Source: Cyanidioschyzon merolae (Eukaryota). Taken from it: a DNA stretch of 64,000 bases. A program made the position numbers and the translations under genes. The stretch lies in assembly GCA_000091205.1 (NCBI GenBank), contig AP006494.2; one strand, 5' to 3'. The first letter of the stretch is position 1. Every line of letters begins with the position of its first letter. A model generated the notes under the pieces. That model had not been told where the DNA came from and ran no database searches. It was given only the letters and a program-made list of their open reading frames with translations. Of the stretch, positions 1-57,330 are shown piece after piece.

Positions 1-1278
1 CTGTTCCACTTCCTTTCAGCGTTTGCAGTGTATCGCGAACGGCAGTACCGCGCGCGGGAAGAGGCGGGCGAAAAAATCGACTGGGATCGCTTTCGTCGCA
101 TTCGGCGATCGTTGCCATTGCCGGTAGCGCGCTTTATCGCAGCTGAGATCCTTGCCGCGCTGGAATTCCTGCATCGCGCGGATATCGTGTACAGAGACTT
201 GAAACCGGAGAACGTTCTAATCGACAATCAAGGGCACATTTGTTTAACGGATTTCGGTCTGGCGCGCGTTCTTGAAGCCGTTCCAGCACATGCTGGCTCT
301 GCTGCTACATTGAGCGGCGACGGTGACCTGGACGCCGCCCACCATATCAAGCCGGGTCGCCACGCAATATCCGACGTCTCGTCTCCATCGTCTTCGTCTT
401 CATCGACGTCGTCGTCGACAACAGCAAGCCCGGACAATTCTTTCGCAGCAGCCCTGGATGGCACCGCCAACGACGACGACGACGACAATGCTGCACCCGA
501 AGGTAAGCACCCCAGCAGCGGCAACGGCAACGAGACGGCATATGTGCGTCAACGAGCGTCGTCGTTCTGTGGAACCAAATCGTATATCTCACCGGAAATG
601 CTCAAGACACGGGCTCGTCTGCTGCATGGATACGGCTTCTCCGTCGACATCTGGGCGTATGGAGTGCTCCTCTATGACATGCTGGTTGGCAGACCACCGT
701 TTTATTCCAGCGATCGGGAGCGCAGCTTTGCGCTTACGATGACGGCGCGTCTGAGTATCCCAGACTTTGTGGATGAGACGAGCGCGGACTTCCTCATGCG
801 TTTGCTGGAGAAGAACGAACGAAAGCGAATCGGTTGCCGTTCTGCGTTTGCGACCGATTTCGACGAGATCAAACGGCACCCGTTCTTTGCGGGAATCGAC
901 TGGAACCTGGTGGAACAGCGCAGATTGCCAGTTCCCCAGGAGATTATGGATGTGCTCCAACTGGGCCCCGACGCGGCACAGAAGGCGAACGTCGACCCGT
1001 CCAGCGTCGAATGGATTGTGCGTAACTTTGATCGCCGCTTCACTGAAAGTGATATGGACTCGCTCATCGCCGCCCTGAACCGCTCATTCGATGAGTCCTC
1101 GCACCCGCTCGGTGTTGGTAGTGCAGTACAGGTGAGTACCAAACAGAGCGATCCAAGTGCCGCACGGCGTAACCGAGCCGGCAGCATTCCCGGCTTTATG
1201 TTTACGTATGAGGTTGCCGCAACCGGTGGAGCGCCCCTGAGCCGAGTGCGCACCGCTGACTCGAAAGCAGCTGCGTGA
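1..1278 (+). CDS. AGC-family Ser/Thr protein kinase, C-terminal portion (5' end lies outside window)
   Basis: Frame 1 is open from nt 1. [18 protein letters not shown] catalytic loop, DFGLA, an approximately 140-aa Ser/Asp-rich insert before [13 protein letters not shown] (APE region), [23 protein letters not shown]-tail [12 protein letters not shown] and a hydrophobic motif GFMFTYEV. Confidence 0.85.
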
Positions 1279-1551
1279 TCGACTTGTGCAGCGCTCTCGA
1301 TCCAAACTTGTTTCTATGTTTTTAGCCCCGTGATGTAAACACACCTGGTAGCCCGTGACGCCATCTAAAACCGCTAGTAGAACACAGCGCAAGCTTTCGT
1401 TCTAGGGGGAATTCCAGGCACGCTGGTTTGTCGCAAGCGCTTGATGCGGCTTCGCTTTGTACGCAGCCGCCGGCTCAGAGCGTCTGCGTTACCGGAATGG
1501 AGAAGAGAACGCTATCGATGCCCAGAGGGAAGAGACTTTACTGTTTCCGTC

Positions 1552-1766
1552 GATGCTTCCGTTTTTACCAGCTCCGTGCCAAAAACTTCCCCAGAACAAT
1601 AAAGGTGTGATCACTCTGACGACTTGCTGAGAACCGCGCCCCTTGCAGGCGCTCGGCGATGCTTCCGTTTTTACCAGCTCCGTGCCAAAAACTTCCCCAG
1701 AACCATAAAGGTGTGATCACTCTGACGACTTGCTGAGAACCGCGCCCCTTGCAGGCGCTCGGCGCT
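1552..1766. repeat. Two tandem copies of a ~107-bp unit (gatgcttccgtttttaccagctccgtgccaaaaacttccccagaac[a/c]ataaaggtgtgatcactctgacgacttgctgagaaccgcgccccttgcaggcgctcggc)
   Basis: Direct visual match of 1552-1658 with 1659-1766, with one substitution. The repeat lies about 280 bp downstream of the kinase stop codon. Confidence 0.85.
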
Positions 1767-3919
1767 GCGCTAGCTGTGCAGTCGCCGTCGACATACCGTA
1801 AGAGGAAGGCGTGGCCATGCCTACACGGGCTGCGCTTCCAGTCTCATCGCCGCGGTACCAGCATGACCTCGTCAACGGCACCGTTGCTACCGAGCGCGCT
1901 CAACGTCATCTCAGCGCTTTCTATGAGTGCACCAAGACAGAGCGGCAGCGATAGGCAATGAGACGGACCTTTCCATGAGGTACAGCACACGGTGCTGTGC
2001 TGCGCGTGGCCTGCATGCTCCCCAAAGACATAACTGGACAGAGGGTTTTTAGCGGCGCCAAGGTACAGCAAAGCACAGCAAAACGAGGCAAGGTACGGCT
2101 CTGTTGCAATGATGCCGAGCGAGCCGCGAAACGCGCTGGGAACGGTACAGTAGGCAAGCGGCGCGCGTGCTCCCCTATGCCCTAGTTATCGTAAAGTAGA
2201 ACACTGAAGTACTCGCTGTGTTCCCGCTTTTCAATTTTTCCAGAGTTGGTCTAGAAATACGGCATAGAAACTCGAAGTTCAGGAATGAATTCGAATGGAC
2301 GACTATGCAAATGTAGAATTCTTGAATGTTTTCTCGGAGTATTGTGTACGATGCTTTGCCACCGGAATTTGTTACGTAATCGTCATGATTCGCGTCGCAC
2401 TCGAACCCGGATTCGTAAAGTAACCGATATCGTTATGCGATGCTTGCGTACTAGCGTCGACTCATGTCCTGGCTGTAGGTGCAGCATGCCCAAATCAAGC
2501 ATTGTATGGAATTCGATCCTTCTGTTGCAAGGCCACTCGAGGCTGAAGCATCTTGCGCCGCCTAGTAGACGAGAAAAGCGAAAATGCTCGACTTCTTCTG
2601 TGAGCGACTTTATGACCTACTCATGCTGATAGCGTACTGAACGTCTCATGCCGAATACTCGATTCTGCTCGAAATACAAACGCTTTACACTGTCTGGTTA
2701 TTGATGAAATCGGAAATGAGCGCAGTATAACCATGCCTCTCACAGGGTATGTCGGTTGGGATCGTCTGTCTTCGGTTTGCACGGAAAATGGTCTTCGAAT
2801 TGCAGTTCAGTGAGCCTAGCGGTCAGTGGCTGTAGAGCGTGCATGTCGCTTCGCCTGAAACGAGCCTAAACGAATCGGAACTCCTCGACTTGATGTCTAA
2901 CCTGAATTTTCCTTACGATATGTGTTTAATCATGGATAACATCGTGTTCCATAAATCCTCTATCGAACGGAAATGCGCACACTTTCGCATATGCAGCGGA
3001 CCGGGCACCTGCCTTGGGGATCGCCTCGAAGAAGTCCTTGATCGTAGGACGCGGCACTCTGTGCGGATACAGAGGAAAACAGCGCTGGGAGCCTTGCGTT
3101 CACGTCAACCGCATGTACCGAGCGATGAAGCGCGCTGTCGTGCGACTCTGGGCGGCGCTCGGAGCCGCAGAAGGTCTAGTGCATCCCTGGGAGCACTTGA
3201 TCGCAGTCACTTGTCACCGCTGGAAAGCGCGCATGGAGACCGTCTGCATAGTAGGCGAAACAGGTGAACGAAACCTGGATCAGAACTTTTGCCTGTGCGA
3301 GGAACCCCCAGAGAACAACCGGAAGCGGCGGAAACGGGCTTTCATGCTGCGATCAGTATCCACGACTGATTCCAACAGAATTTGCGGGATAGGTAGGACC
3401 GGCGTATTCGAAGCGCGAGACAAGGGAGAGGAAAATGAACCGGTCGCAGAAAAAGCTTGCCATGGCTGGTGTTGATGACAATGCTGAGCGAGCCATACGT
3501 CAGTGTGTGTGTGTGTGCGCTCGTGCTATGTGAGAGCGCCCGTCCCACGGTATTCCGACATGAGTGTACGGCATGCAGGACGATACCGGAATGTTTTTTT
3601 CTGCGGTGAGAGGTCGACGCATCGATCCAGGGATCTGTAGCGAGTGCGATGCTCCTGCGTATCGATCGATGCAAACAGTGCGCGGGCCCAGTGCCCCCAG
3701 TGCTCTACGAACCATAGACCAGACTTCACTTTGTGAATAATGGTTTGTTCGCACGACCTTCCCAAGTATAGGTCCTACTGTGAGTGTCTAGAATGGCGCT
3801 AGTCGTAGCAGCAGCACTGCGGGCCGCTGAATGCAGACAGATCGGTTTCACGAGTCCCCGTCTGGCGCCCGCTCGAACGTCGATTCTCATCAGGGAAACG
3901 GATCACTACGGGCGCTATG

Positions 3920-5370
3920 AGATCGGCCTCAGAAGTTTTTGTCTTTCAACTCAGTTTCGTGGCAAGTCTGCTGCGGTGTGCAGTAGGCGGTTGAAATCTC
4001 CATGGAATGTACTGTACCGATCGTAGACGAATCGCCAATAGAATATGTTGTTTGCTGAACAGTGCACGGAGGGTTTCATTTCTCCATCGGATCAGTGATA
4101 CCACAATACCCATATGGTTGAGGAACACTGAACGAAGCAAGTACACGTGGTCTGCATTAAAACAACCGATATTCTCGAAGACTGCGACCTGTTAGTGGTA
4201 TAAACCAACCCACCGGACACGTTCCGGAAAGCGAAATGAACAATAGTAGGCAGCACGGGCGCCGCTTTTCTCAATTGCCTGTTCGCGTGATCCTGAAAAC
4301 ACTGGGATGCAGTCGGAATAAACTTCTGGTTCACGAACGGACATCTTCCACCAAAATCGGAACGAGAGCGTTCTCAGAATGTCGCGGTCGGTATGAAGCA
4401 GAGCATCATCGGTTTGTTTTACCGGTCGATGAGACTCGCTTCGGAAAAAGACGGTCCGAGCGTATATGGGTATTCGTGGCGGGGGCGCCCCCTTCTATGT
4501 ACAATCAAATTCGATGAGGACGATGACATCAACTGTCCTAGATGTAGTGGATTCTAGTGGCGGCCGCAGTTTCGCTCGTAGGCAAGGCTCACACAACAGC
4601 ATCTACATGCTTAAATCATTGAAGACATTTGCCTCTGACGTTTGATCACGTTCGTCCATTGGATATCGAGGCATCTCACTCTTCGCTTTACGTAACTGCA
4701 TTTGCTGCGCGTGCCGGAGGTAGAGCCGGTCTTTTCTTCCCTGTACGCCTAGTGCCTTAACTCCATCGACGGAGCGTTTCCATCGTGAAACGTAATGATC
4801 GCTCTAGTAGGCGAATCGTTGAAGCGTACATCACACGGTGACACGTTGACACATACCGTCTTTTACCAGCAAGTGCTTCTCCCTTTAGGATGGTTCTCAC
4901 CCAGGCACATAAATAAGTGCGTTCATTTTAGAAAAATAAGGGATGAGCTCGGACGTACATTTCAAAAGGTCGAGTTTGAGCAGAGGCAGTGGAGCGCTTC
5001 GGCTATAGAAAACTACGAAGCGCTGACCGAAGAGCAAATGGAAAGGAGGGCGAAAGCTCGTGGATTGCTTGCACCAGTGAGTACAACGAATGATGGCAAG
5101 AAACGTATGGAGTTCGTGAACCGAGACTTTAACGCCGCCATCAATATCAGGAGATGTGCCGTGGTGGAGCATAGACCTCCAGAGTGGACAAGAAGGTGTT
5201 TTGTTGGACAACCTCCCAAAGTCGAACTATATGAGAAAAAATTTGAAGCAGTAGAAGGTGGCCTGTCCCAAAAGACTGCAAGGCATCTGCACGTCAGTTG
5301 GCTACGTTTCCTCCAAGGCGCGTTGCCGCTACTACTGTGCACCGCTGGCGACGTTCGACTTTTGAATGGC
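3920..5370 (+). mobile_element. Composite repeat copy: HTH-like small ORF (4007-4195) plus non-coding segment plus Fanzor/TnpB-like C-terminal fragment; second copy at 29885-30950 (-)
   Basis: Nucleotide-level homology to the reverse complement of about 29885-30950 over more than 1 kb (for example gtatatgggtattcgtgg, gatgaggacgatgacatca and cgtagacgaatcg blocks). The peptide MYCTDRRRIANRICCLLNSARRVSFLHRISDTTIPIWLRN matches MYCIDRRRIVYKNYCLLNSARNTAFLLQVSHTTVFKWLRN on the other copy. Confidence 0.6.
4795..5299 (+). pseudogene. Fanzor/TnpB-like nuclease, C-terminal fragment (zinc-finger remnant plus RuvC-III)
   Basis: EEQMERRAKARGLLAPVSTTNDGKKRMEFVNRDFNAAINIRRCAVVEHRPPEWTRRCFVGQPPKVELYEKK aligns residue-for-residue with the 39354-39740 ORF. 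RDFNAAINIRR is the RuvC-III signature of TnpB/Cas12/Fanzor. The stop codon is lost and the ORF runs on into flanking DNA. Confidence 0.65.
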
Positions 5371-6781
5371 TATTGGCTGCATGGAGCAAACTCGAAAACG
5401 ACGGCGGACGGGATGTTTTCATACCCTCGGCTTTGACTGGAGACAAGCGCTCGCGACTGCCTTTATGCCACCAGAACCACGAGGCTTTTCCGCAGCCGCG
5501 TGCCAACGCGCAACACGTTGGCAGACGGTACAGCCTCGAGCTCGTCGACGGACGCTTTCAGAGCGTCGGCTACAAATGCTATACGTCAGCCGTCGAGAGT
5601 TTCTGTGGCAACTCGCAGCGGGCGCGGCAACGCTGGGCTTTCACAGTGTGAAAAAACCTGTGGCGCCAGCGGCTTCAAACTCGGCACCACCGGCGCCCGT
5701 GAATGGGCGCTTGGCACCACTGGGTGCTATCTTCGACACGATGATCGGCTCTTTTCTACCACCGCGACCTGAGCGACTCTTATCGAGGCGAATTCGGCAT
5801 AAAGGAGCACGCTCTGTTCTCTTGGTCGGGGAGACACACACGGACCGACAACACCATCGGGTGCAACTGGCGTTGCTGGACTCGTTTGTGAAGCATGTTC
5901 GAGGTCAGCGGAATGAGTCGATTGCAGGAGCTCCAATTGCGATCGGCATGGAGCATTTCTATCGGCAGCATCAAGTGCATCTGGATCGGTACATTGCGGG
6001 CAAGATTGAGCTACGACAGTTACTCGCTATTACTCGTTTCGAACTTACCTTTGGGTATAGCGCGCAACTTTGGCAGGATATTTTGGAGTATGCACGGGAA
6101 AACCGTATTCAGGTTGTTGGTCTCAATACTCCGTTCGAATTGGTGCAGCTGGTTGCCCACTACGGCCTGGATCACTTACCAGAACGTTTGTATGAAGTGC
6201 TTCCTCGCGATATGGATGTGCATGGTAATGCTGCACACCGTGAGCGTTTTATTCAGAGGATGAAAGCGTTGGGGGTGGAAGCGCATGGTCCACTCATTAA
6301 CGACGAGGCAGCACTGCAGCGAATGTATGAATCGCAGGTGCTCTGGGACGAATACATGAGCGAATCGGCGGCCTTGTGGCTAGAGCGGAACCCCCGCGGT
6401 CACTTGTGTATTTTTGCGGGTAATGGTCACGTCGAAGGCCGTGTTGGGATTCCAGACCGCCTGACTCGTCGTTCTGGGAGGCCGACCTTCACCGTCGTGC
6501 CGTATACGGTGCCGTTCCAATCAGACGGCTGGCCCGATATACCGCATCCCGGCAACAGAGATGTCGGAGATTGGCTCTGGTACCTGCCTGTAGGATCTGG
6601 GGGTGCCGAATCTGACGAATCGGACCCCAAGTCGCAGCGACAGCAACGGTTCGGGGAGCGTTTCGGCTATCGAATCGCACGCAGTACCGAGTCCGACATG
6701 AGACTGATGGGGCGAGGCGCAGCCAGAACCATTCAGAGAGGTACGCAGACGAAATCTGTGGACGAGCCGGACTGGGTATGA
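5366..6781 (+). CDS. ChaN/Tiki-like (haem-binding uptake / iron-regulated family) protein with twin-arginine-type signal peptide; the true start may be a downstream Met
   Basis: SRREFLWQLAAGAATLGF (RR followed by a hydrophobic h-region) at about 5585-5640, preceded by an approximately 70-aa basic leader. VLLVGETHTDRQHH and a GNGH motif are typical of the ChaN/Tiki/TraB GxxH fold. Confidence 0.55.
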   Translation: MAIGCMEQTRKRRRTGCFHTLGFDWRQALATAFMPPEPRGFSAAACQRATRWQTVQPRARRRTLSERRLQMLYVSRREFLWQLAAGAATLGFHSVKKPVAPAASNSAPPAPVNGRLAPLGAIFDTMIGSFLPPRPERLLSRRIRHKGARSVLLVGETHTDRQHHRVQLALLDSFVKHVRGQRNESIAGAPIAIGMEHFYRQHQVHLDRYIAGKIELRQLLAITRFELTFGYSAQLWQDILEYARENRIQVVGLNTPFELVQLVAHYGLDHLPERLYEVLPRDMDVHGNAAHRERFIQRMKALGVEAHGPLINDEAALQRMYESQVLWDEYMSESAALWLERNPRGHLCIFAGNGHVEGRVGIPDRLTRRSGRPTFTVVPYTVPFQSDGWPDIPHPGNRDVGDWLWYLPVGSGGAESDESDPKSQRQQRFGERFGYRIARSTESDMRLMGRGAARTIQRGTQTKSVDEPDWV

Positions 6782-17599: not shown

Positions 17600-18799
17600 A
17601 AAATAGTGACAGCAAGCACCTGCTCACGGCTTTTCGTACGGTGTGGCCGCCGCAGAAGCCCCGCTCGCCGGCGATGGCAACACACCGGAAACGACACTGG
17701 CCCCCGTGTTTCTCTGGAGTGCTGCTGCTGAGACCCCAATGGGTTCACAGCCAATACCAGCTGTTACAGCGTCCGCGTATTCGGTGTTCGCTGTCTCGAG
17801 CTGGCAGCGCAGTGCGCGAGGAGTACCAGATGGGCCCGTTTCAAGCTGCCCTGCGAGTGCCACGACGGTATTGTCCAGGTTGTCGTGAGGCACTGGGATG
17901 GACAGATTGGGAAATGGGACAGATTTGCCATCTGAGTGACTGCGGCGGCGGCGGCGGCGGCGGCGGGATCTCGACTTTGCGCATCGATCTGCGATCTGGG
18001 ATTTTTTCTCAGATGTCAAAAAGTGCCCAGTGATCAGGGATCCCAGATTGCGGGATGGGTAGGTATTCGTTATCGAAAAAGCGTCCATGATGCTTCACGA
18101 TACCTCCAAGTTCCATTACTTGTGCTTCCGCTAGGATGCACTGGTCGTTTCGTACGTTCTATCGAGCGCTAAGTGTCTGCTTTGCTGCACCCTGCTGAAG
18201 CGTCTACACCGACAGAGCAGATGCTGCGCGGAGACAGCGCGGCGTTGCTGTACCACTGATGACTTCGGCTCGAGGCGCGGTCCATCTGATAAGGGATCAG
18301 GATTCATGATCATTCTGGGATCCAGCGATCTGCGTAGACAGACGCACTGGCTGCGGCAGCGCGAAGCGATATGCTACGAGATAATCGTCATATTGGCGAC
18401 GCCCAGACGCAGTCTAAGTGTACCTGGTCTCGGAATAAACCGCGTTGCCGACGAGTTACTCAGATCTCAATAGAGTACTAGGCACTGGGTGCAGCATGGA
18501 GCACCAGCCTGGCAGACTTGTCCGGCTCGCAGGACATTCCGCCTGGAAGGTAAACGTTCGAAATATGGAAACATTTCCCCCCTTTGAACGTTTACCGTAG
18601 AGGGGAAAGAACATTTTATCCAGTTGGTAGTTAGTCCTTGGTTTATGATCCGTTTTGTACATGGTGCGCTCGAGATGCGCACACCCATATCTGGCAGGCA
18701 TGCGACCTAGCATGTGCATCTCGCCGCTGAGGGGAAACGCGAACCTGATCATGAGCGTATTGCTCTGACTAACAAGATGTATTTGCGTTCAAGGCACAA

Positions 18800-19915
18800 G
18801 AGAGTATGTTTTTCTCAGTTCAATTGTGTGTCAGCTCTCAAGTGAGTGTATTCGAGCGATTTTTCGCGGGTTGTAGCAGAAGCTTTCAAAGTGCGTTGTT
18901 TTGAAAAATAGTCGAGATAAATCGGGAAAAATATGGTTGTAGAAGTGGAGGATCCTGGAGGGCCCCGTATCGCCGGCTGCCGCAAAAAAAAACCGAAGAA
19001 CAGTGCCAACCAAAGAGGAACAACACAGGACCAGGAAGCAAGGCGGCGAGGGCCGACACCAAAACCTGCAGGGAAAACGACAGTACGACGAGATGGAAGT
19101 GAAAGCCTGTCTTTTACGCTGCGTCAAGGATCCGTGCAGGGCAAAGTTGCAAGAGGGCATCAGAAACCGTGTCGATTCGTACTCCAGGAGTATTGGAAAG
19201 GCCTGTTCAGGAATGATGCATGTGGTGAAGGTGATGTGTCGCGACGTGACGGACATCCAAACCGTCGAGGTTCCGGACGAGATTTTCGGCAAGACCTTCA
19301 TTCGTCACCTGATGGTTGGAACAGGGGAAACGTCGAGGAGAAATGAGCGAGTTCGTGCCCTCCACGAAAATTACACCAAATACCGCTCCAACGATACTCG
19401 ATACACGGGAGACTCGCGTATTTACGAATACGGGGCGATCAAGTACCTCACGAACCTGAAGAACCACGTGACCATGAACCTCAAAGGCTTCATGATACGC
19501 TCCGTCTTTGCCCTCGACCCGGAGCTGTCTCGCATAGGGATACGGGCCATCATCGACGGCATCAAGAACGATAGTCGGAATGAACAGGAGATCGAATTTG
19601 CCGACAAGAAGACATCACGCAGAGGAAAGAATGAACCTTCTGGAATCCCTGCGGCTATTCAGGAGCACCGTGCAGACTCGGGGCTTGTCAACCCAGCGGA
19701 TAAAGTATCAGAGATGAAAAAGATGACGAAAGATTTTATCCCCGCGTCCAGCGCTATTCCGTGTTTTTGGAGCGAGAACTCGAACGCCAGGCGGAGATGG
19801 AGCTCACTAGGGGAATACGTGAAGATTCGGAGAAGCGGAAGGCTTTCGTAATGGGTAAGCGCTTCAACGTCATTCCATTATGCAACAGCAAGTAGCACTT
19901 TGTGCGAATCGACGC
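18800..19915 (+). mobile_element. Fanzor-like element, 5' part only (left UTR plus N-terminal about 275 codons), truncated at a junction with an unrelated left-end repeat
   Basis: The 5' non-coding block (ttcaaagtgcgttgtt...) and coding sequence match 37250-38330 of the longer copy. YDEMEVKACLLRCVKDPCRAKLQEGIRNRVDSYSRSI matches YDEMVVKTFLLGHMKDPYKEKLRDAIETRVDSYSKSI, and IKYLTNLKNHVTMNLKGFM matches MKYITNLKNHLTKNLERFM. There is an internal frameshift near 19700. Confidence 0.6.
19093..19915 (+). pseudogene. Fanzor-like N-terminal coding fragment (frameshifted, truncated)
   Basis: Shares a conserved ATG (gagATGgaagtg versus gagATGgttgtg at 37481) and about 55 percent aa identity with the 37481-38330 region. 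The track ORF start at 19003 is a GTG, not ATG. Confidence 0.55.
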
Positions 19916-19917
19916 TA

Positions 19918-20140
19918 GCGTCCTTGAATGCACAAAACGACCAGTGCATCCGAGAACAGGTAATGGAACATGGAGGTAGGGCGCATCATGATGGACGCTT
20001 TCCCAAATGCTTGTACCCAGCTCGCAATCCTGGGTCCCTGGTCAACGTAAACGTTTTTTGAACAAAAATGCCTGAAGCAGCTGCATCGGGACTGCAATGC
20101 TGCCAGTATCGACCTTCGACAGTTGATAACGGAACTGGAG
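19918..20140 (+). repeat. Left-end-type repeat, copy A (solo), family shared with 36900-37080 and 57055-57330
   Basis: Three-way alignment: aaacgacc..ccgagaa..ggtaatg..ggaggtagg[g/t]gc..at[g/c]a[t/c]ggacgctttccc[a/g]aa..cg[c/a]aat[c/t]ctgggatcc[c/a]tgg..aacgt..ttg..aaaaa..., extending to aacggaactgg. Confidence 0.55.
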
Positions 20141-29884: not shown

Positions 29885-30950
29885 CCATACCTATTACTTG
29901 GATTTTGTATTTCTTCAAAATAAACGCACTTGTTAATGCCCTTAGATAAGGACCTTTTCGGAGGCAGGAGGACCTGCGGAAGAAAGACGACTTGTGCTCG
30001 CGGTTTGTCCCCGCGGGCTGCACGCTTCAGCGATTCCTCCAGTGAAGCGATCATTATGTGTCACAACAGAGAACAAGCCTTCGATGGGGATGAACCACGG
30101 AGCGTACGGAGGAACCACAAGGAGGTCTAGCACCCAACAGAATCCTCAAAAGCTCGAATGCAAGGGAAACAGTGAGATGCCACGCTGTCCAATAGAGGAA
30201 CGTCGCCAGACGTCAGGGGTAAAGTCGTCAATCCTTTGATAAACTGGGTGCTATTATGTGAGCCTTCTCCACTGGGGAAACTGATGTCGCCACTTGAATC
30301 CACTGCAGCTAGAGCAGATGATGATGTCGTCGTTCTCATCGGGTTCGACTGTGCATACGACGGGCTCCCTCTCCACGAATACCCATATACGCTCCCACGT
30401 TTCGTCCGAAGAAAGTCCTATCAACAGAAAAAAGAAACCGACGATCCTGTGCTTCTCACAGATCGCGACGCTCGATAAACCCTCTCGTTGGGATTTCGGC
30501 AGCAGATAGCCGAGTGTGAACTAGGACTCTCTTCTTGCGACTGTGCCCCTGTGCGTTTCGTAGGACATGAACTAGCCGTAGAGAAACAGAGATTCCGGTG
30601 GTGGCTGCAATCATCGCTTTTATTTTCCGCAAGGTGAACAAAGAGTCGGTTTTGTACCACTGGCCGCAAACAGTGTTTAAGAATATCGGATTCTAACGCG
30701 GACCGCATACACTCCTCTCTTTCAGCGTTCCGCAACCATTTGAAGACTGTGGTATGACTGACCTGAAGGAGGAATGCAGTATTCCTTGCACTGTTCAGTA
30801 AACAATAGTTCTTATAGACGATTCGTCTACGATCTATACAATACATTGCATTGTGATTTCGACCGCCTACGATACACCGCTACGAGGAGGGCACGGTCGA
30901 GTGAAACAAACCTGAGTCAAAAGAATATATAGGTTCACACATCAAGATTG
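29885..30950 (-). mobile_element. Second copy of the composite repeat (HTH-like ORF 30846-30421 plus Fanzor C-terminal fragment remnant 30054-29890), truncated before RuvC-III
   Basis: MIASLEESLKRAARGDKPRAQVVFLPQVLLPPKRSLSKGINKCVYFEEI matches MIALVGESLKRTSHGDTLTHTVFYQQVLLPLGWFSPRHINKCVHFRKI at locus 1. DNA homology continues through 30421-30950. Confidence 0.55.
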
Positions 30951-35028: not shown

Positions 35029-37480
35029 CCTTTGGAGAAGTTTGTTGCCTAACCGACCCTACCAAACCAGCTTCAGAAGTCGCGGTTTTGGTCAACTCAA
35101 ACGTGGACTTTGCGTCGTGCTGCGGACAAACCCAGACAGCGCTGGTTGTCGCTTGGCGGTGGCGTCTCGCGGGCGCAGCACGCCGGCGTTGCCGCTGCGG
35201 ATGCTACACTCGAGTCGGATAAAAATCGAGCACAGAATAGCTTTCCATCTCTTCCCAACACTTCATTTATTTCATAGATTTTTCTTAAATGTACAACCTG
35301 AGCGATCGAAGTGCAGCAATGAGAGATGAAGAGATCATGCGTAAATGAAGGATTCTTGGTCGTTTTTTGGAGTGGCTCTTTCGACGCTTTTCCGCTGGAC
35401 CTCGTTACGTCATCACGATGAAGGTGCGTCACCACCGACGTCACCACGCGTGCCCGAAATAACCGATATTATTATCCAGCTCACACGTTCAAGGTTTTAG
35501 CCTTCTCCGATCCTTACGTGCAGTATGCTCTAATTCACGTACCCGTCGAGGTTTCGAGCTTTCTATTTGAAGTCATCTGCTGGGCGCACTCGTTGGCGCC
35601 TATGGATTGACGGGACATATACTCGACGGCGTGCCTCGATGATGTTTCCGCAGGCTCATGCAGAATATGTTATGAGTTTCTCATGTCAACGGATCGATTC
35701 CGTTCCAAACGCGAATCCTCCTCTCTTCGTGGCCATAACTACAACAAAACGCGACAGCAGCATGATTCCTGTAACGGGAGACGCGCCAACAGGCTCCCGC
35801 CTCTTCTGTCTGCACGGAAACGGGTGCCGGATTCGCACCTGAGCCATCACAACGATCGCTTGGAGTGGAACGTGCGCCAATGCTTCGCGTGAAAGGAGTA
35901 TCGACGGATCGAAACTTCTCGACTTGTTTTGCATACCGAGCCTCGCTCCTGATCCTGTTTCCGTAGCGGACAATGTCGCATTCCACAAATCCTCTATCGA
36001 ATAAGACAGCGTGCCGTTGCGCGTGCAGCGCACAGAGTGCTCATCGACGGGATCGCGAAGAAGAAGCTCTTCTTCGTAGGGTATTGCACAGGGCGCGTAA
36101 ACGGAGGAAAGCATCGAGGCGCGCCGCTCTCAACCCGTCCAGGGCAAGTACCGGGCAATGACGCAAGCGTTCACGCGCCACAGATCTACGCTCGAGGAAG
36201 GACGGGGTTTCGTGGACTTCCTGAAACATCTAAGCACATTCAAACGTCATCGTTGCAAAAGACGCACTGTGGCTGTATAAAACGAATAGAAACAACGCAA
36301 ACGAAGCGTACATCGTACCTACTGCTTCTGCGTAAACAACGTCGACAACACCCAGAAGCCCCCACTCGCGACATGCACGTCACCATCAACATCCCGCAAC
36401 TGCTTCCAACGGAGCTGGGGGCAACGGCGAAACCGACGTATTGAACGCCAGCGATAAAAGAGCATATACAAGAGCAATCATCAAAAAACCCGCAAAGACT
36501 TGTGTTGTTGATGAAGATAGAAACCTAGAACTTAGTGTTTACGTCCGAGTTCACGAAATGGACCCATCCCATGGTTCATACGAACATCGCTGCCTAGCGC
36601 AGGCGCTCCGCGAGGATGCGATCATTGCGTGCAGATCGCCTCAGCGAGAGAGCGCCCCATCGAGATGCTCGCCCCAGGGTATATTCTAACAGCCAAGTTT
36701 CTCCAGCGTGTCGTGCAACGAAGACAAGCCTGCATCCGCAGACTGTCCGAGCACAAACTGACGACGAGACCCGATTCTACGTCGGGTGAACCACGCCTCG
36801 AGCCGACGCCCTTTGTGGTATAGCAAAGCCGTTCGAGCTCTATGAACTATCTGCTCCAGCGGTTCAAGCGCAAAGGTGGATGATTAGGGTAGGTACGAGG
36901 CACACACGATAGGACGTATGAAACGACCAAAATATCCGAGAAGAAGTCTAGGTAATGTAACTTGGAGGTAGGTGCTTCATCACGGACGCTTTCCCGAAAG
37001 CCGTTATCCGTTCCGAATTCTAGGATCCATGGTGAATGAAAACGTCTTGTCAATAAAAAAATCGCGCTCAATGGGCGCACCCCGGAGATCGGGCAGTCAA
37101 CTGACGCGATGCGCGTGCCGTTGTTGAAGGGAAACTCAATTGGGATCAGTAACGTGTTGTTCAGCTGTGAACGTCGGATATCGGTTCAGGCCATAGCAAA
37201 GTACAGTCTTTCGGTTCATTTTTGTTTCAAACTTCAAACAAGTCCAGTCAAGTGTTTTTTTGCAGTATATAACAGCAGGGTTCAAAGAGCGTTCTTGTTC
37301 AAAAAAAACTAATAAAAGGAAAACTATGCAAAAGTAAGTCGACGATCCTGGAGGCTCAGTGTCGCCGGCTACCAGAAGAAAACAAAAAACAGTGCCGAGT
37401 CCAGAAGAAAATGAAGAGAAGGAGGACTGAAAGGGGAGGCTCTACGTCGAAGGCGGCAAGAAAGACGACTGTACGACGAG

Positions 37481-39740
37481 ATGGTTGTGAAAACCTTTCT
37501 TCTTGGACATATGAAGGATCCCTACAAGGAAAAGTTGCGAGACGCTATCGAAACACGTGTCGACTCGTACTCGAAGAGTATTGTCAAGGCGTCGTCAGGA
37601 CTGATGCATTTAGCGAGGGACATGTACGAATACGTCGCGCACATGGAAACAGTCGAGATTCCAGACGAGTTTTTCGACAAGACGTTTATTGGTCGCCTGA
37701 TGCTTGGTACAGAGGAAGCGCGGAAGGAAAATGAGCTAGTGCATGCCCTCCACGAAAATTTTGCGGAATTCCGCTTCGAGGGTATTCGAATCAAGGGTGA
37801 CTGGGGTATTTAAGACTCTGGGGCAATGAAGTACATTACGAACCTGAAGAACCATTTGACAAAGAACCTGGAACGCTTCATGAAACGCGCCGTGTTTGCA
37901 CCCTACCCAGGCATCTCTTGCAATGGAAAATGGGCGATTATCCATGGCATCACGAATGATCGAAAGTATGAAGATGAGATCGAATTTGTCGACAAGAAGG
38001 CGTCAAAAGAGAGCACGAAAGAAGCTTCTGCGATCCGCGCGGTTTTACAAGAGCATCGTGCGCGACTGGGGCTGGCGAATCCAACAGGCAAGGTATCAGA
38101 GCTCAAAAAAGATAAGGAGAGATACTATCGCCTCATCCTGCGCTATTTTGTGTTGTTGGACCGTGAACTCGAACGCGAAGCGGAGATGAAGCTGAGTGAA
38201 GAGACAAATGAAGAGTGGGAGAGACGGAAGGCTTTCCTAACGGGGAAGCGCGTCAATGTGGTTCCGTTGGGCAACATCAAGTCACATTTTGTGACTATCG
38301 ACTCCGCAGTCCTTCATGGCATCATGAGGGAGATCAGTCCCGAGTTCGATGTTAGCAGGGAGGAATTCTCCGGTGAAAACCGGGAGACGTACTGGATGAG
38401 CATCTTCGATTTCAAACGTCCCAAAGTGAGCAAGAAAAAGGTATTCACAGGGTCGATCGAAACAGATGGAGTAGCCTTGTGTGTACACTATCGGCGGTTG
38501 AAGAAAGTTCGTCCAACTCCGCCTTCGGCTGCGCCCGTCATGAAGGATGAAGAAAACAAAGAGGAGGTTCCTGTGACGCAGGAGGAGCAGGATGACGACC
38601 TTGTCGTTGGCGTGACGAAGGATGAAGAAAACAAAGAGGAGGATCCTGTGACGCAGGAGGAGCAGGATAACGATTTTGTCGTTGGCGTGACGAAGGATGA
38701 AGATGAGAAGGAGGCGAGTCCTGCGACGCAGGAGGTGGAGAATAACGACTTTATGGTTGACGCGACGAAGCATGAAGAAAAGAAGGAGGCGGATCCTGCG
38801 ACCCACAAAGTGCAGGATAACGACTTTGTCGTTGGCGCGGACCCTGGGAATACGAGTATCATAAACATCGCTGCTCCCAAGCGTGCGGAAGATGGTACTG
38901 ATGGTAACTTACGTCAGAAAGACATGCGTCTGTTGAGGTTCTCGAGAGCCAGATACTATCGAGAATCGGGAATCATAAATGCAAGGAAGAAAATCGAGAC
39001 TTGGAATTCAGGAATGAAAGAGCACCTGGAAGCTTCGAGCGAGGTGACGAGCCGAGGAGCGGACTTTGAAGCTTTTCGGAAATTCACGGAAGTTCGCGTT
39101 GCTCATTGGGAGGCGCCGTGGGAGGAGTATACCAAGCCCCGGTGGGCTCGTTGGCGTATGAATTTGTATTGTGGGAAGCAGCGGGCATTCGCGAATTTTT
39201 TCAATCAACTGAGTGCCCTGAAGGAGAATCAAAGTGAGAGGTTGGTAGTGACGTACGGAGCAGGGCGCTGGATGACCCAAAAAGGAACTACGCCAGCTCC
39301 AACGACGAGAACGTACAAGGAGTGTGCACGGCGTTTTGTTACGATACCTGTAGATGAGTTCCGAACCTCGTATACACACCATGAGCTGGTGTGTACACTT
39401 CAGAGAGTTCGAGATGGAAAAGTGCCAGACGAACCCTGAGGATATGAAAAAGTACGGACCGCTGACGGAGGAGCAAATGGAAAGGAGAGCGAAATTTCGA
39501 GGGCTACTTGCATTAGTAAGTACAACCAGTGATGGCACGAAACGTATGGAGTTTGTGAACCGTGACTTTCATGCCGCTGTGAATATACGGAGATGCACGG
39601 TGCTGGAGAAGAGACCTCCAGAGTGGACAAGAGAGAACTTTGTTGGACAACCTCTCAAAGTCGAACTATATGAGAAAAAGTTGGAAGCAATAATAGGTGG
39701 CCGGTCCAGAAAGGCTGGGACGCATCTGCACGTCAGTTGA
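37481..39740 (+). pseudogene. Fanzor-like nuclease ORF, disrupted by in-frame TAA (37811-37813) and a +1/-2 frameshift in a tgtgt run (about 39387-39397)
   Basis: Three track ORFs (37481-37813, 37826-39439, 39354-39740) concatenate into one protein when aligned to the 19093 and 4795 copies. The TAA replaces a sense codon (GI*DSGAMKYITNLKNH versus YEYGAIKYLTNLKNH). The frame changes exactly where ..HHELVC / CVHFREF overlap. Confidence 0.65.
38543..38840 (+). repeat. Four tandem approximately 75-bp repeats inside the Fanzor ORF encoding 25-aa acidic units (KDEENKEE[V/D]PVTQEEQD[D/N]D[L/F]VVGVT)
   Basis: Read directly from the protein and DNA. The last unit runs straight into the RuvC-I strand [12 protein letters not shown]. 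Confidence 0.75.
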
Positions 39741-39827
39741 TGACGATTTGTATAGCGCGCGTTCGCCGCCACTACTGTACACTGCCAGCGACGTCGTTCG
39801 ACTTTCGAAGGGCGGTGACACAAGACC

Positions 39828-40871
39828 GTGTACATAAACATGTCTCAGTTGGATGACACACACGATCTACTAAACATGGGGGATGCGGGTTCCGGATCGA
39901 AAGAATCAGACTCTGCCTTGAGGCGTGGTGGTGACGTTTCGGGCGGCAAAGCAGCGCCAGTGAACGGTGCCGTGGCTGCTTCCGAAAGCGACAACGCAAG
40001 CAGCAGTAGCGCCGCATTACGTAATAGCAGCGCGTCGTTCCGGGAAGGTCCACCTGGAAGGCCACCTCTATTGAGCCAGAGGTTTACGGTGGCCCGTCAG
40101 CATCTACCGGGTCAGCTGCATGAGATCCTTATGTGGCGGAACAAGTACCGCTCGGGGCTCGCTTTCGCCTTGGGTAACTTGTTCTTCTATTTCACCACGT
40201 TCGGGGAACTGAGCATCATCACCGTATTCTCTATGATCGTGTTTTGGATCGTGCTACTGGGTTCGTGTCTCGTTCTCCTGAGCCGCGCACTGGCGTACCT
40301 GACGTCAGCGAGCCCCGTACCTGGCGCATCACCCGTTGGTACGACGGCACCGACGCGTCGCTTGCTGAACCGAGAAACTGCGGAGCGGCTCACGGAGAGC
40401 ACCATGAAAACGGTTAACGGGTTGGAGAACCTTTTGCGCGACGCAGCGCATTGTCGTGATTGGCAGCTCACCGTGAAGGTGCTCCTTGGCTCCTATCTGA
40501 TCGGCAAACTGGGACCGCTGTTTCTGAATATGTACATGGGATGGCTCATCTTTCTCAGCGTAATGACGTTACCCAAGGTTTACGAATGGAAGCAGCGTGA
40601 CATTGACGATCTCATTCGGGAAATTCAACCCGTTCTCCAGAGCAAGCTCTATGAAGCCGAGGCGCTCATCAAGAATCATATCAGCAGCGTGCTCTCCCAG
40701 ATACCGCCCAAGGTCCACGAGTACTCCGAGATGCTTCGAGCGCAGCTGCGCGCGCTGACGGGCGCATCCGACCGTGCACGAAGCAGCAGCAGCCGCCCGC
40801 CGTTTTCAGCCGGAACCAGTGCCGCAACATCGTCGTCCATGACAACCAGCGCTGAAACAAAGGAAGACTAA
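39828..40871 (+). CDS. Reticulon-like protein (reticulon homology domain)
   Basis: W..KYRSGLAFALGNLFFYFTTFGELSIITVFSMIVFWIVLLGSCLVLLS, then a loop, then VKVLLGSYLIGKLGPLFLNMYMGWLIFLSVMTLPKVYE. Two long hydrophobic hairpins with the conserved GN..F and W motifs of the RHD. Confidence 0.65.
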   Translation: MYINMSQLDDTHDLLNMGDAGSGSKESDSALRRGGDVSGGKAAPVNGAVAASESDNASSSSAALRNSSASFREGPPGRPPLLSQRFTVARQHLPGQLHEILMWRNKYRSGLAFALGNLFFYFTTFGELSIITVFSMIVFWIVLLGSCLVLLSRALAYLTSASPVPGASPVGTTAPTRRLLNRETAERLTESTMKTVNGLENLLRDAAHCRDWQLTVKVLLGSYLIGKLGPLFLNMYMGWLIFLSVMTLPKVYEWKQRDIDDLIREIQPVLQSKLYEAEALIKNHISSVLSQIPPKVHEYSEMLRAQLRALTGASDRARSSSSRPPFSAGTSAATSSSMTTSAETKED

Positions 40872-56531: not shown

Positions 56532-57054
56532 GACTCGTAGCCTGTATTACTACGCTTTCACGAGCTGTTCACGCGTTCACCTGCCCGCGGGGAAACTTTC
56601 TCGCTTCAGGAGCGCAGGGTGCGCTGGCCTCGGCGACTGCCACGCACAGGCGTGTCCCGAGGCGCTACGCTGCGCTCTATCAGGAGACGCTCGCGCGAGT
56701 GCGCGACACTTGCCAGAAACAGTGAGGATAATGATCAAAGACGCACCGCCACGCGTACCACTGACCCTAGAACCGGCTTGCTACTTGGCATAGCGTCCAG
56801 ATCCGTTGTCGAACTGGGGGTCCTGCAATAGACGCTGACGCTGCGCCTCCTCTAACCCTCGCTACTGCGTTGGATGCTTGCTGCCGTCACCTGCGTGCCG
56901 TAACGACACACCGCAAGACTGGGCGGTGCACGAACCAATAGCTCTGGAGACAAGTCTGGGTCGCTATAATCGCACCATCCCCAGGACTTGGTGATGCAAT
57001 GAACAATGAATCCGAAGGCAAGCATTGGTGATTGCTAGCTAGTTAGCTAGCGGA

Positions 57055-57330
57055 TCCTGAAAGTAGGTGCGGCAGCATAATGGACGCTTTTTCAACTACC
57101 AATATCCATGCATTCCGCAATCTGGGATCCATGATCAATGGAAACGTGTTGTCATCGAAAAAGAATCAGCACTAGTGCTGCGGACGTGGCACTGCGATCC
57201 CGTGAACGCATCCAAGAGCGGACGCACCGAGAACGGAACTCTTGGCTTTGGCTGCCGTTGCCGACCGCTGTGGCATACGTTGAAGCGACTGTTTCGGCAC
57301 TTGCAAGGTATATTACAGAAAAGTGCGTTG
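57055..57330 (+). repeat. Left-end-type repeat, copy C (solo, internally shortened), immediately upstream of riboflavin synthase ORF
   Basis: The head (gtaggtgcggcagcataatggacgctttttc..cgcaatctgggatccatgatcaatggaaacgtg) aligns with 36965-37060. The tail (ggtatattacagaaaagtgcgttgtactaaatg) aligns with the Fanzor 5' UTR at 37255-37300 and 18880-18920. Confidence 0.55.

Follow-up and report, generated by a model that had tools for sequence, protein, structure and literature searches.

Fanzor1 proteins are eukaryotic homologues of TnpB, and CMe-1A is the one Fanzor1 family listed for the red alga Cyanidioschyzon merolae by Bao & Jurka 2013 (Mobile DNA 4:12; PMC3627910). About 150 copies are reported there, each about 80% identical to a consensus of 3169 bp, which is provided in supplementary files together with the 734-aa CMe-1 protein. 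The element has no terminal inverted repeats (TIRs), its target-site duplication is recorded as undetermined and its classification as 'unknown'. Over the 5' 635 bp, CMe-1A shares 95% identity with a separate element, TE-N2_CMe (about 70 copies), and an intact open reading frame (ORF) remains in some CMe-1A copies. The present analysis concerns a stretch of 64,000 nucleotides of C. merolae DNA (contig AP006494.2), called the window below and numbered from its first letter, in which the segment 37061-39818 is very probably a decayed copy of the CMe-1A transposon, with a single gene encoding Fanzor1.

With the Fanzors that they tested, a set to which CMe-1 does not belong, Saito 2023 and Jiang 2023 demonstrated RNA guidance and cleavage. 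In TnpB and the tested Fanzors, the guide RNA comes from the 3' end of the element and reads into the flank. Several sequence features are attached to these proteins. DPG at RuvC-I is a Fanzor signature (Yoon 2023), the canonical RuvC-II position holds Gly or Pro in Fanzors (Jiang 2023), and their alternative Glu precedes the first zinc-finger position by six residues (Jiang 2023; Yoon 2023). In the solved complex of Spizellomyces punctatus Fanzor1 (SpuFz1), D383, E541 and D606 are the Mg-coordinating residues. A C4 zinc finger belongs to the Fanzor1 motif of Bao & Jurka 2013 (PMC3627910) and is shared, in the form CCCC, by SpuFz1 and ISDra2 TnpB, while 'many' Fanzors, not all, possess a zinc finger according to Yoon 2023.

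Family membership and fold

The published CMe-1A consensus DNA and the CMe-1 protein align directly to the locus (Table 1), so that the family, which the original prediction from the raw letters and their ORFs had thought possibly undescribed, is already a known one. The window copy shows the nucleotide identity of about 80% to the 3169-bp consensus that characterizes CMe-1A copies, and a global alignment to the consensus coding sequence (CDS) gives 87.3% nucleotide and 81% amino acid identity to CMe-1. The three ORFs of the locus join, as had been proposed, into one protein of about 750 aa, namely a repaired frame of 751 aa starting from the ATG at 37481. The 537-aa ORF among them is absent from the protein collection and is therefore not annotated as a gene.

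The repaired protein has 39 homologues, nearly all from metagenome collections of the Joint Genome Institute, many of them with the precomputed Pfam annotation PF26935 (DUF8286). Neither the three ORFs nor the repaired protein gave a significant match to Pfam-A, PF26935 appearing in the precomputed annotations only, and a literature search for papers naming DUF8286 found none. The most distant homologue, P0039, stands above the gathering score of PF07282 (Cas12f1-like TNB domain; 29.3 bits). A family profile was built from an alignment, A1, of the window protein and six relatives at 24-76% identity. Against all PDB sequences, this profile matches only the Fanzor1 proteins of Parasitella parasitica (PpFz1; 9cf0, E=1.9e-17) and S. 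punctatus (8gkh, E=2.8e-15), with the motifs DPG, DE[FY][RK]TS and NRD aligned in both.

The fold was approached through an AlphaFold2 model of P0001, an intact-looking relative 76% identical to the repaired window protein, rather than of the broken copy (mean predicted local distance difference test score, pLDDT, 72; predicted template modelling score 0.65). In a Foldseek search of the PDB, the top seven chains are all Fanzor1, with E from 2.4e-15 to 3.1e-13. SpuFz comes first (E=2.4e-15, target TM-score 0.68), followed by PpFz and Guillardia theta Fanzor1 (GtFz1), whereas Cas12, TnpB and Fanzor2 score merely E of at least 3e-3. A Fanzor1 fold with its WED, REC, RuvC and NUC parts is thus predicted for the modelled relative. 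Profile and structure searches were the check initially suggested for the Fanzor/TnpB-like identity, and both led to Fanzor1 entries; the core call of a Fanzor1/TnpB-like protein finds full support in sequence and profile, in structure and in the literature.

Compared with CMe-1A (PMC3627910), the window copy comes from the same organism and likewise has a single-exon ORF, no TIRs and multiple copies. It departs from the consensus in being a pseudogene with three extra 75-nt acidic units, and in carrying an inverted 283-bp TE-N2_CMe fragment instead of the collinear 635-bp part. The folds of SpuFz1 (PDB 8GKH, 9CEU-9CEZ), PpFz1 and GtFz1 resemble the P0001 model (Foldseek E ~1e-13 to 1e-15, target TM-score 0.50-0.68), and each of these proteins, like CMe-1, is the product of a single ORF in a multi-copy mobile element, whereas their sequence identity to CMe-1 is merely 12-15%. 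CMe-1 further shares with SpuFz1 the DPG of RuvC-I, the alternative Glu (E541) and the RD of RuvC-III (D606). Both the CCCC zinc finger of SpuFz1 and the inverted repeats of 30 nt at the ends of its element are missing from CMe-1A, and unlike all three proteins, CMe-1 has a disordered acidic repeat inserted ahead of RuvC-I.

The likeness extends to bacterial and archaeal IS200/IS605 TnpB with a rearranged site ('TnpB2') and to Cas12f, which have in common with CMe-1 the split RuvC and the insertion site of the TNB/zinc finger, and which give weak fold matches to the P0001 model (8h1j, E=0.02; Cas12f, E=0.04-0.14). By analogy with TnpB and Cas12f, an omega RNA from the 3' end would be expected for CMe-1 likewise. 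The differences are of size (about 730 aa for CMe-1 against about 400 for TnpB), of motif (DPG against D-hydrophobic-G) and of setting, as CMe-1 is a nuclear eukaryotic gene with no associated TnpA transposase, unlike IS200/IS605 TnpB.

Catalytic residues, zinc-finger region and proposed mechanism

Residues are numbered here from the Met at 37481, and those invariant in A1 include D454, P455, Y592, G593, E626, R693 and D694. As read from the sequence, both signatures that separate Fanzors from typical TnpBs, DPG and the alternative Glu, are present. The counterparts aligned in SpuFz1 are D383 for DPG, E541 for VDEFRTS and D606 for NRD, in a numbering that removes an offset of 394 residues for the maltose-binding protein fusion chain, derived from chain length. 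The RuvC-III motif EFVNRDFHAAVNIRRC is present, with an invariant NRDF, as are the other motifs quoted in the original prediction, FRTSYTHHELVC and VDEFRTSYTHHELVC, and the positions it gave for the GADPG Asp (38840) and the RuvC-III Asp (39564) are exact. Its suspicion of a rearranged RuvC-II glutamate was right, since the canonical site reads YGAG and E626 of VDEFRTS aligns with SpuFz1 E541. The stretch cited for that region, ERLVVTYGAGRWM, does exist at the locus, but at 39236-39274, about 5 nt away from the 39241-39275 first indicated. This motif-based reading of the raw sequence was on the whole accurate.

The zinc-finger remnant that had been noticed is a degenerate region whose Cys ligands are lost. 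In the window copy and in the CMe-1 consensus alike, the region reads TSYTHHEL...LLALVSTTS, with H and L where the first two Cys would stand and L and S where the other two would, so that no CxxC...CxxC finger stands between RuvC-II and RuvC-III, whereas P0039 retains CHEC...C..C. A profile search of 1.84 billion representative proteins returned 5318 relatives (clusters at 50% identity) at E<=0.001, of which 668 at E<=1e-30. Among 124 relatives examined, taken from the best matches of this search and the homologues of the repaired protein, both Cys pairs are kept in 14, and about 89% lack them. Their loss is therefore a property of a large clade and not of C. merolae, and it was treated as derived within that clade because homology, fold and catalytic signatures all hold. 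The DPG, the alternative Glu and the RD are kept in the examined relatives (P0036, P0140-P0288), as scored by motif patterns also used to select them.

The 25-aa acidic repeat array announced ahead of RuvC-I was recovered by Tandem Repeats Finder (TRF) and adjoins the RuvC-I strand on its upstream side. The consensus has one unit and the window copy four, with other numbers among other copies; the excess of 225 nt over the consensus equals three units and keeps the frame. In the P0001 model, the repeat (residues 376-472) has a pLDDT below 50 and is disordered. The array is an in-frame expansion of variable copy number in the linker before RuvC-I.

By analogy with SpuFz1, GtFz1 and PpFz1, an intact member of CMe-1 would associate with an omega RNA that is produced from the 3' end of the element and whose guide segment reads into the flanking DNA. 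The complex would cut matching DNA where a short motif adjoins it, by means of one RuvC active site presumably formed by the Asp of DPG, the alternative Glu of VDEFRTS and the Asp of NRD. The window copy itself is unable to make that protein, given its nonsense codons, frameshifts and premature stop. The 3' tail is the place where a candidate omega RNA scaffold would end. Up to 39814-39818, this tail is common to all copies, as had been said, yet the conservation claimed for it does not exceed that of third codon positions: over about 50 copies, the 78-nt non-coding tail shows a mismatch of 21.0% against 20.5% at third codon positions, and no covariation is detected.

Several results weigh against so complete a reading of the element as a mobile, RNA-guided nuclease. 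The CCCC zinc finger is missing, so that nuclease activity might be lacking even in intact CMe-1 proteins, and the literature search found no report of nuclease activity for any member of the CMe-1 clade, including RNA-guided DNA cleavage dependent on a target-adjacent motif. No Rfam match was obtained, either with permissive thresholds on 36000-40500 or at the gathering score on the whole window. RNAfold of 39600-39818 revealed no unusual stability against shuffles (z=-0.49), and the covariation term of RNAalifold was -0.01. Three helices picked by hand, in two arrangements, pair in 82-92% of cells, with covariation not above that of shuffles; covariation is uninformative here because the copies are too alike and too many of them are dead.

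Table 1. Features of the CMe-1A copy and their positions in the window
Feature	Position	Strand	Basis or remark
Inverted fragment of the consensus 5' module (TE-N2_CMe part)	36770-37052	-	79.5% to consensus 4-282; adjoins the Fanzor unit, not collinear
Alignment of consensus 4-282	37052-36770	inverted	79.5% identity (blastn)
Probable Fanzor1-coding unit of the CMe-1A copy, consensus ~647-3169	37061-39818	+	consensus blastn, ends of metagenome copies
Alignment of consensus 648-2193	37063-38612	+	82.5% identity (blastn, published consensus)
Hairpin-capable GCGCTC-AAT-GGGCGC, 3 nt inside the 5' boundary	37064-37078	+	weak evidence
Degenerate Fanzor1 ORF (pseudogene)	37326-39740	+	alignment to consensus CDS, ORF list
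Nonsense TAA, consensus codon 4 (Glu)	37335-37337	+	consensus alignment
Nonsense TGA, consensus codon 35 (Gln)	37428-37430	+	consensus alignment
1-nt deletion, frameshift	after 37433	+	consensus alignment
ORF	37481-37813	+	same frame as 37826-39439, split by TAA 37811-37813
Nonsense TAA, consensus codon 163 (Tyr)	37811-37813	+	TAC in most other copies (28-copy alignment)
ORF (537 aa)	37826-39439	+	ORF list
Acidic tandem repeat, 75-nt (25-aa) unit x3.9	38542-38837	+	TRF, 84% matches
Alignment of consensus 2122-3169	38766-39814	+	89.6% identity (blastn)
RuvC-I Asp (VVGADPG; D454)	GAC 38840-38842	+	invariant in A1; aligns with DPN/DPG of SpuFz1/PpFz1
Canonical RuvC-II position	39254-39265	+	reads YGAG, without Glu; Y592 and G593 invariant in A1
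ORF	39354-39740	+	different frame from the other two
Alternative RuvC-II Glu (VDEFRTS; E626)	39356-39358	+	invariant in A1; aligns with DEYKTS Glu, SpuFz1 E541
Zinc-finger (NUC/TNB) region, Cys ligands lost	39359-39563	+	TSYTHHEL.. and ..LLALVSTTS
1-nt (T) insertion, frameshift	39408/39409	+	39406-39409 in the consensus alignment; alignments to copies and consensus
RuvC-III Asp (NRDF; D694)	GAC 39564-39566	+	invariant in A1; aligns with SpuFz1
Stop TGA, consensus codon 730 (Trp)	39738-39740	+	five codons ahead of the consensus stop
Non-coding 3' tail	39741-39818	+	motif GCCGCCACTACTGTAC at 39765-39780; hairpin-capable 39795-39811
Hairpin-capable CGTTCGA-CTT-TCGAAGG	39795-39811	+	weak evidence

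Chromosomal setting and decay of the copy

The window lies on chromosome 12 of C. merolae 10D, and eight of the nine ORFs looked up are exact matches to 10D proteins (CML234C-CML245C). The neighbours are ordinary nuclear genes, encoding ChaN-like haem-binding, reticulon, IMP dehydrogenase, UBX, TPR and Myb-domain proteins, as well as a riboflavin synthase identified by name. The relic sits between CML240C and the reticulon-like gene, whose ATG at 39840 follows the element end by 22 nt. This position invites the idea of a host co-option, in which the 3' end would serve as promoter or 5' untranslated region (UTR) of the reticulon-like gene, or would supply omega RNA in trans to intact Fanzor copies. 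In its favour, the element ends at 39814-39818, immediately upstream of that ATG; a second 3' remnant ends at 5370, with the annotated ATG of the next gene (5366) inside it; and the arrangement is kept in several metagenome contigs with an identical reticulon protein. The short intergenic regions of C. merolae nevertheless make such adjacency expected by chance. Moreover, the tail has no excess conservation, and the contigs with this arrangement, at 96-100% identity to the window, are silent on selection. Co-option is therefore considered improbable.

Both CMe-1A 3' ends of the window adjoin host start codons in the same orientation. At the second one, the annotated start of the ChaN-like gene falls within the transposon tail (..TTTTGAATGGC..), the next in-frame ATG being at 5382. 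Such ATGs at tails could mean that an N-terminus is mis-annotated, or that 5' UTRs or promoters derive from the transposon.

The relic itself was compared with the consensus and with 28-34 other copies, and its lesions were located from these alignments. The family ORF starts at the ATG at 37326 (MEKEVEDPGG... in the consensus) and not at 37481. With nonsense codons at three internal places, two 1-nt frameshifts left uncompensated and one premature stop (Table 1), the window copy is, on this sequence evidence, a pseudogene, and does not belong to the 'some' copies credited with an intact Fanzor1 ORF (PMC3627910). The original prediction, which implied two lesions, underestimated the damage, as at least five disabling ones emerge from the consensus alignment. 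The TAA that it saw interrupting the frame at 37811 is real, and so is the need for a one-base correction, although the inserted T stands at 39408/39409 and not at about 39390. This extra T occurs in no other aligned copy except L034, the identical locus from a metagenome. The TAA and the extra T are therefore ordinary inactivating mutations and not recoding signals, because the other copies differ.

It could still be supposed that the locus is a functional gene, started at the internal ATG 37481 or 37826 and relying on stop readthrough and +1 frameshifting. From ATG 37481, the 751-aa frame is indeed broken by merely one stop and one frameshift, and the three catalytic residues are all retained. 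Against this, the TAA replaces a Tyr codon kept by most copies and the extra T is confined to this locus and L034, so that neither is a conserved recoding signal; the N-terminal 52 codons, including a basic stretch resembling a nuclear localization signal (NLS), bear further lesions; and the 537-aa ORF alone has no RuvC-III. A gene still in use is accordingly very improbable. Weaker still, to the point of being negligible, is the idea that the likeness to Fanzor is superficial, due to a chance NRD..N.AA.NI motif or to another RuvC/TnpB-type protein such as a bacterial contaminant: the absence of significant Pfam-A matches for the ORFs and the repaired protein speaks for it, but it is contradicted by full-length and Fanzor1-specific profile and fold searches, by the nuclear C. 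merolae genes on either side, by a published family alignment that takes in the CMe-1 protein and by the alignment of the published consensus to the locus, and the NRDF.AA.NIRR motif is accompanied by an upstream RuvC-I Asp and an alternative Glu that align with SpuFz1.

The decayed CMe-1A copy belongs to a family with traces of past selection on its protein. Over about 50 copies, mismatch to the window at codon positions 1, 2 and 3 is 13.1, 11.6 and 20.5%, and the ratio of nonsynonymous to synonymous changes (dN/dS), computed for the consensus, L001 and the window, falls at 0.30-0.46. Diversification of the family thus took place partly under purifying selection, after which copies decayed. 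In a set of 55 related loci, the sole intact full-length ORF found is one of 722 aa, common to L001 and L005. As a single dead copy among the roughly 150 of a family published in 2013, the locus in itself matters little. For the specialist, its value lies in the apparently composite consensus with a sharp boundary at about 647, and in the placing of CMe-1 within a large Fanzor1 clade whose zinc finger has lost its cysteines. C. merolae lends itself to genetic work and grows at around 42 °C and pH 2. The 722-aa ORF of the metagenome loci could be a candidate intact endogenous Fanzor1 for activity work.

The consensus N-terminus (MEKEVEDPGGPVSPAAGKKRKTVPSPEEQEKTKKQKREARRQRLQERR), which corresponds to 37326-37480 in the window, contains abundant basic NLS-like clusters. 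At the equivalent of 37326, an ATG is missing from most metagenome copies (AAAAGG against AAATGG/TTATGG), so that in many copies translation could start at the internal Met only (MVVK).

Ends, modular structure and further copies

A scan of metagenome contigs delivered 53 related loci, from which the probable edges of the unit can be placed. At the 5' side, homology is lost at 37061 +/-3, corresponding to consensus position ~647, in at least 13 metagenome copies. At the 3' side, most copies cease abruptly to match the window at 39814-39818, following ...CGTTCGACTTTCGAA.GGCG(G/T)T. No TIRs were found when searched for at the element, and the absence of TIRs and the presence of further copies in the window agree with what had been proposed. 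The boundary initially set at 36900 is wrong, however, since it falls inside the inverted TE-N2 fragment, which belongs to a different repeat.

Upstream of the 37061 boundary, the copies show at least five unrelated classes of sequence. They include the inverted TE-N2-like fragment of the window copy, the collinear TE-N2-like module of the published consensus and of a second window copy, a 725-bp 'variant B' region itself preceded by the 3' end of another copy, and an abutting head-to-head copy, with others besides these four. The inverted arrangement also occurs in L004, L017-L021, L027 and L028, and homology to those loci reaches 36673. The collinear 5' 635-bp TE-N2_CMe-like module, which the window copy does not have, is present in window copy 2 (18012-19925) and in L011, L012, L016 and L044. 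From the sharp 5' edge and the varied upstream classes, we infer that the coding unit is 37061-39818 and that the published consensus joins TE-N2_CMe to this unit. Judged from sequence comparison, the CMe-1A consensus appears to combine two modules that meet at about 647, which refines a relation already noted by Bao & Jurka.

Both ends of the unit are potentially able to form hairpins. At the 5' one, 75% of cells pair over 20 copies, compared with 26-56% for slid partners, which is a weak indication. Hairpin-capable ends of the coding unit recall the Helitron2 elements of Chlamydomonas that carry Fanzor1 as cargo (CRe-1/2/3; PMC3627910) and that, as CMe-1A, have no TIRs. Of the Helitron2 traits, no RepHel turned up, though no search was aimed at it, and no convincing asymmetric terminal inverted repeats were seen by eye; as candidates for a Helitron2-type asymmetric terminal repeat, only GC-rich 6-8-mers were found, possibly chance occurrences.

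A wider proposal can be drawn only tentatively and is rather unlikely to hold as a whole. The mobile unit may be a piece of 2.5-2.8 kb (37061-39818) with hairpin-capable ends and neither TIRs nor transposase, landing repeatedly next to TE-N2_CMe or to the 3' ends of other copies, while its protein belongs to a large Fanzor1 clade (DUF8286) that has mostly lost the CCCC zinc finger. If true, it would fit a single-strand end chemistry of the IS200/IS605 or Helitron2 type persisting in a eukaryote, and would imply a zinc-independent NUC domain, the protein having stayed under purifying selection at least in the CMe-1 family (dN/dS 0.30-0.46).

No empty insertion site was found among the contigs with an identical reticulon protein, all of which contain the element or break inside it. 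Two candidates for such sites, L062:1-1377 and L065:1-968, turned out to be assembly chimeras joined inside the transposon tail (window 39792 and 39765, respectively), the partners being an insect-cuticle-like ORF rich in proline and a piece of bacterial aconitase B. In L026, L027 and L039, the inverted TE-N2-like fragment stands upstream and a direct, nearly full TE-N2-like copy lies about 55 bp past the 3' end, which gives a long inverted-repeat-like arrangement around the Fanzor gene. L056:3501-4998 is 99.9% identical to the window from 38686 on and 80.8% identical over 37190-38687, and other genes (Obg GTPase, hydrolase) lie upstream; the contig holds a recombinant copy, or else the assembly switched within the 75-nt repeat array.

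Within the window, copy 2 is collinear with consensus 2-1895 (80.5%), TE-N2-like 5' module included. Its truncation falls in the N-terminal half of the protein, stops are numerous, and an inverted TE-N2 5' fragment (consensus 8-144 at 20057-19926) follows directly. Another partial copy, at 4943-5370, corresponds to the 3' 432 bp of CMe-1A (consensus 2737-3168, 83.8% identity). Its segment 4960-5370 translates to ...MEFVNRDFNAAINIRRC..., in which the RuvC-III motif is found again, as had been noted for 5119-5154. Ahead of this 3' unit lies a repeat 'X' (about 630 bp, 4310-4938) that is unrelated to it and recurs inverted at 29908-30543 (-). The composite of X and the 3' unit is also found upstream of the Fanzor copies in L046, L052, L053 and L054. 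Possibly, this composite is a non-autonomous derivative with only the 3' end, including the presumed omega RNA region, in common with the Fanzor element. Lastly, an isolated fragment of 114 bp at 57044-57157 (-) is 78% identical to the first 107 bp of the CMe-1A/TE-N2_CMe consensus.

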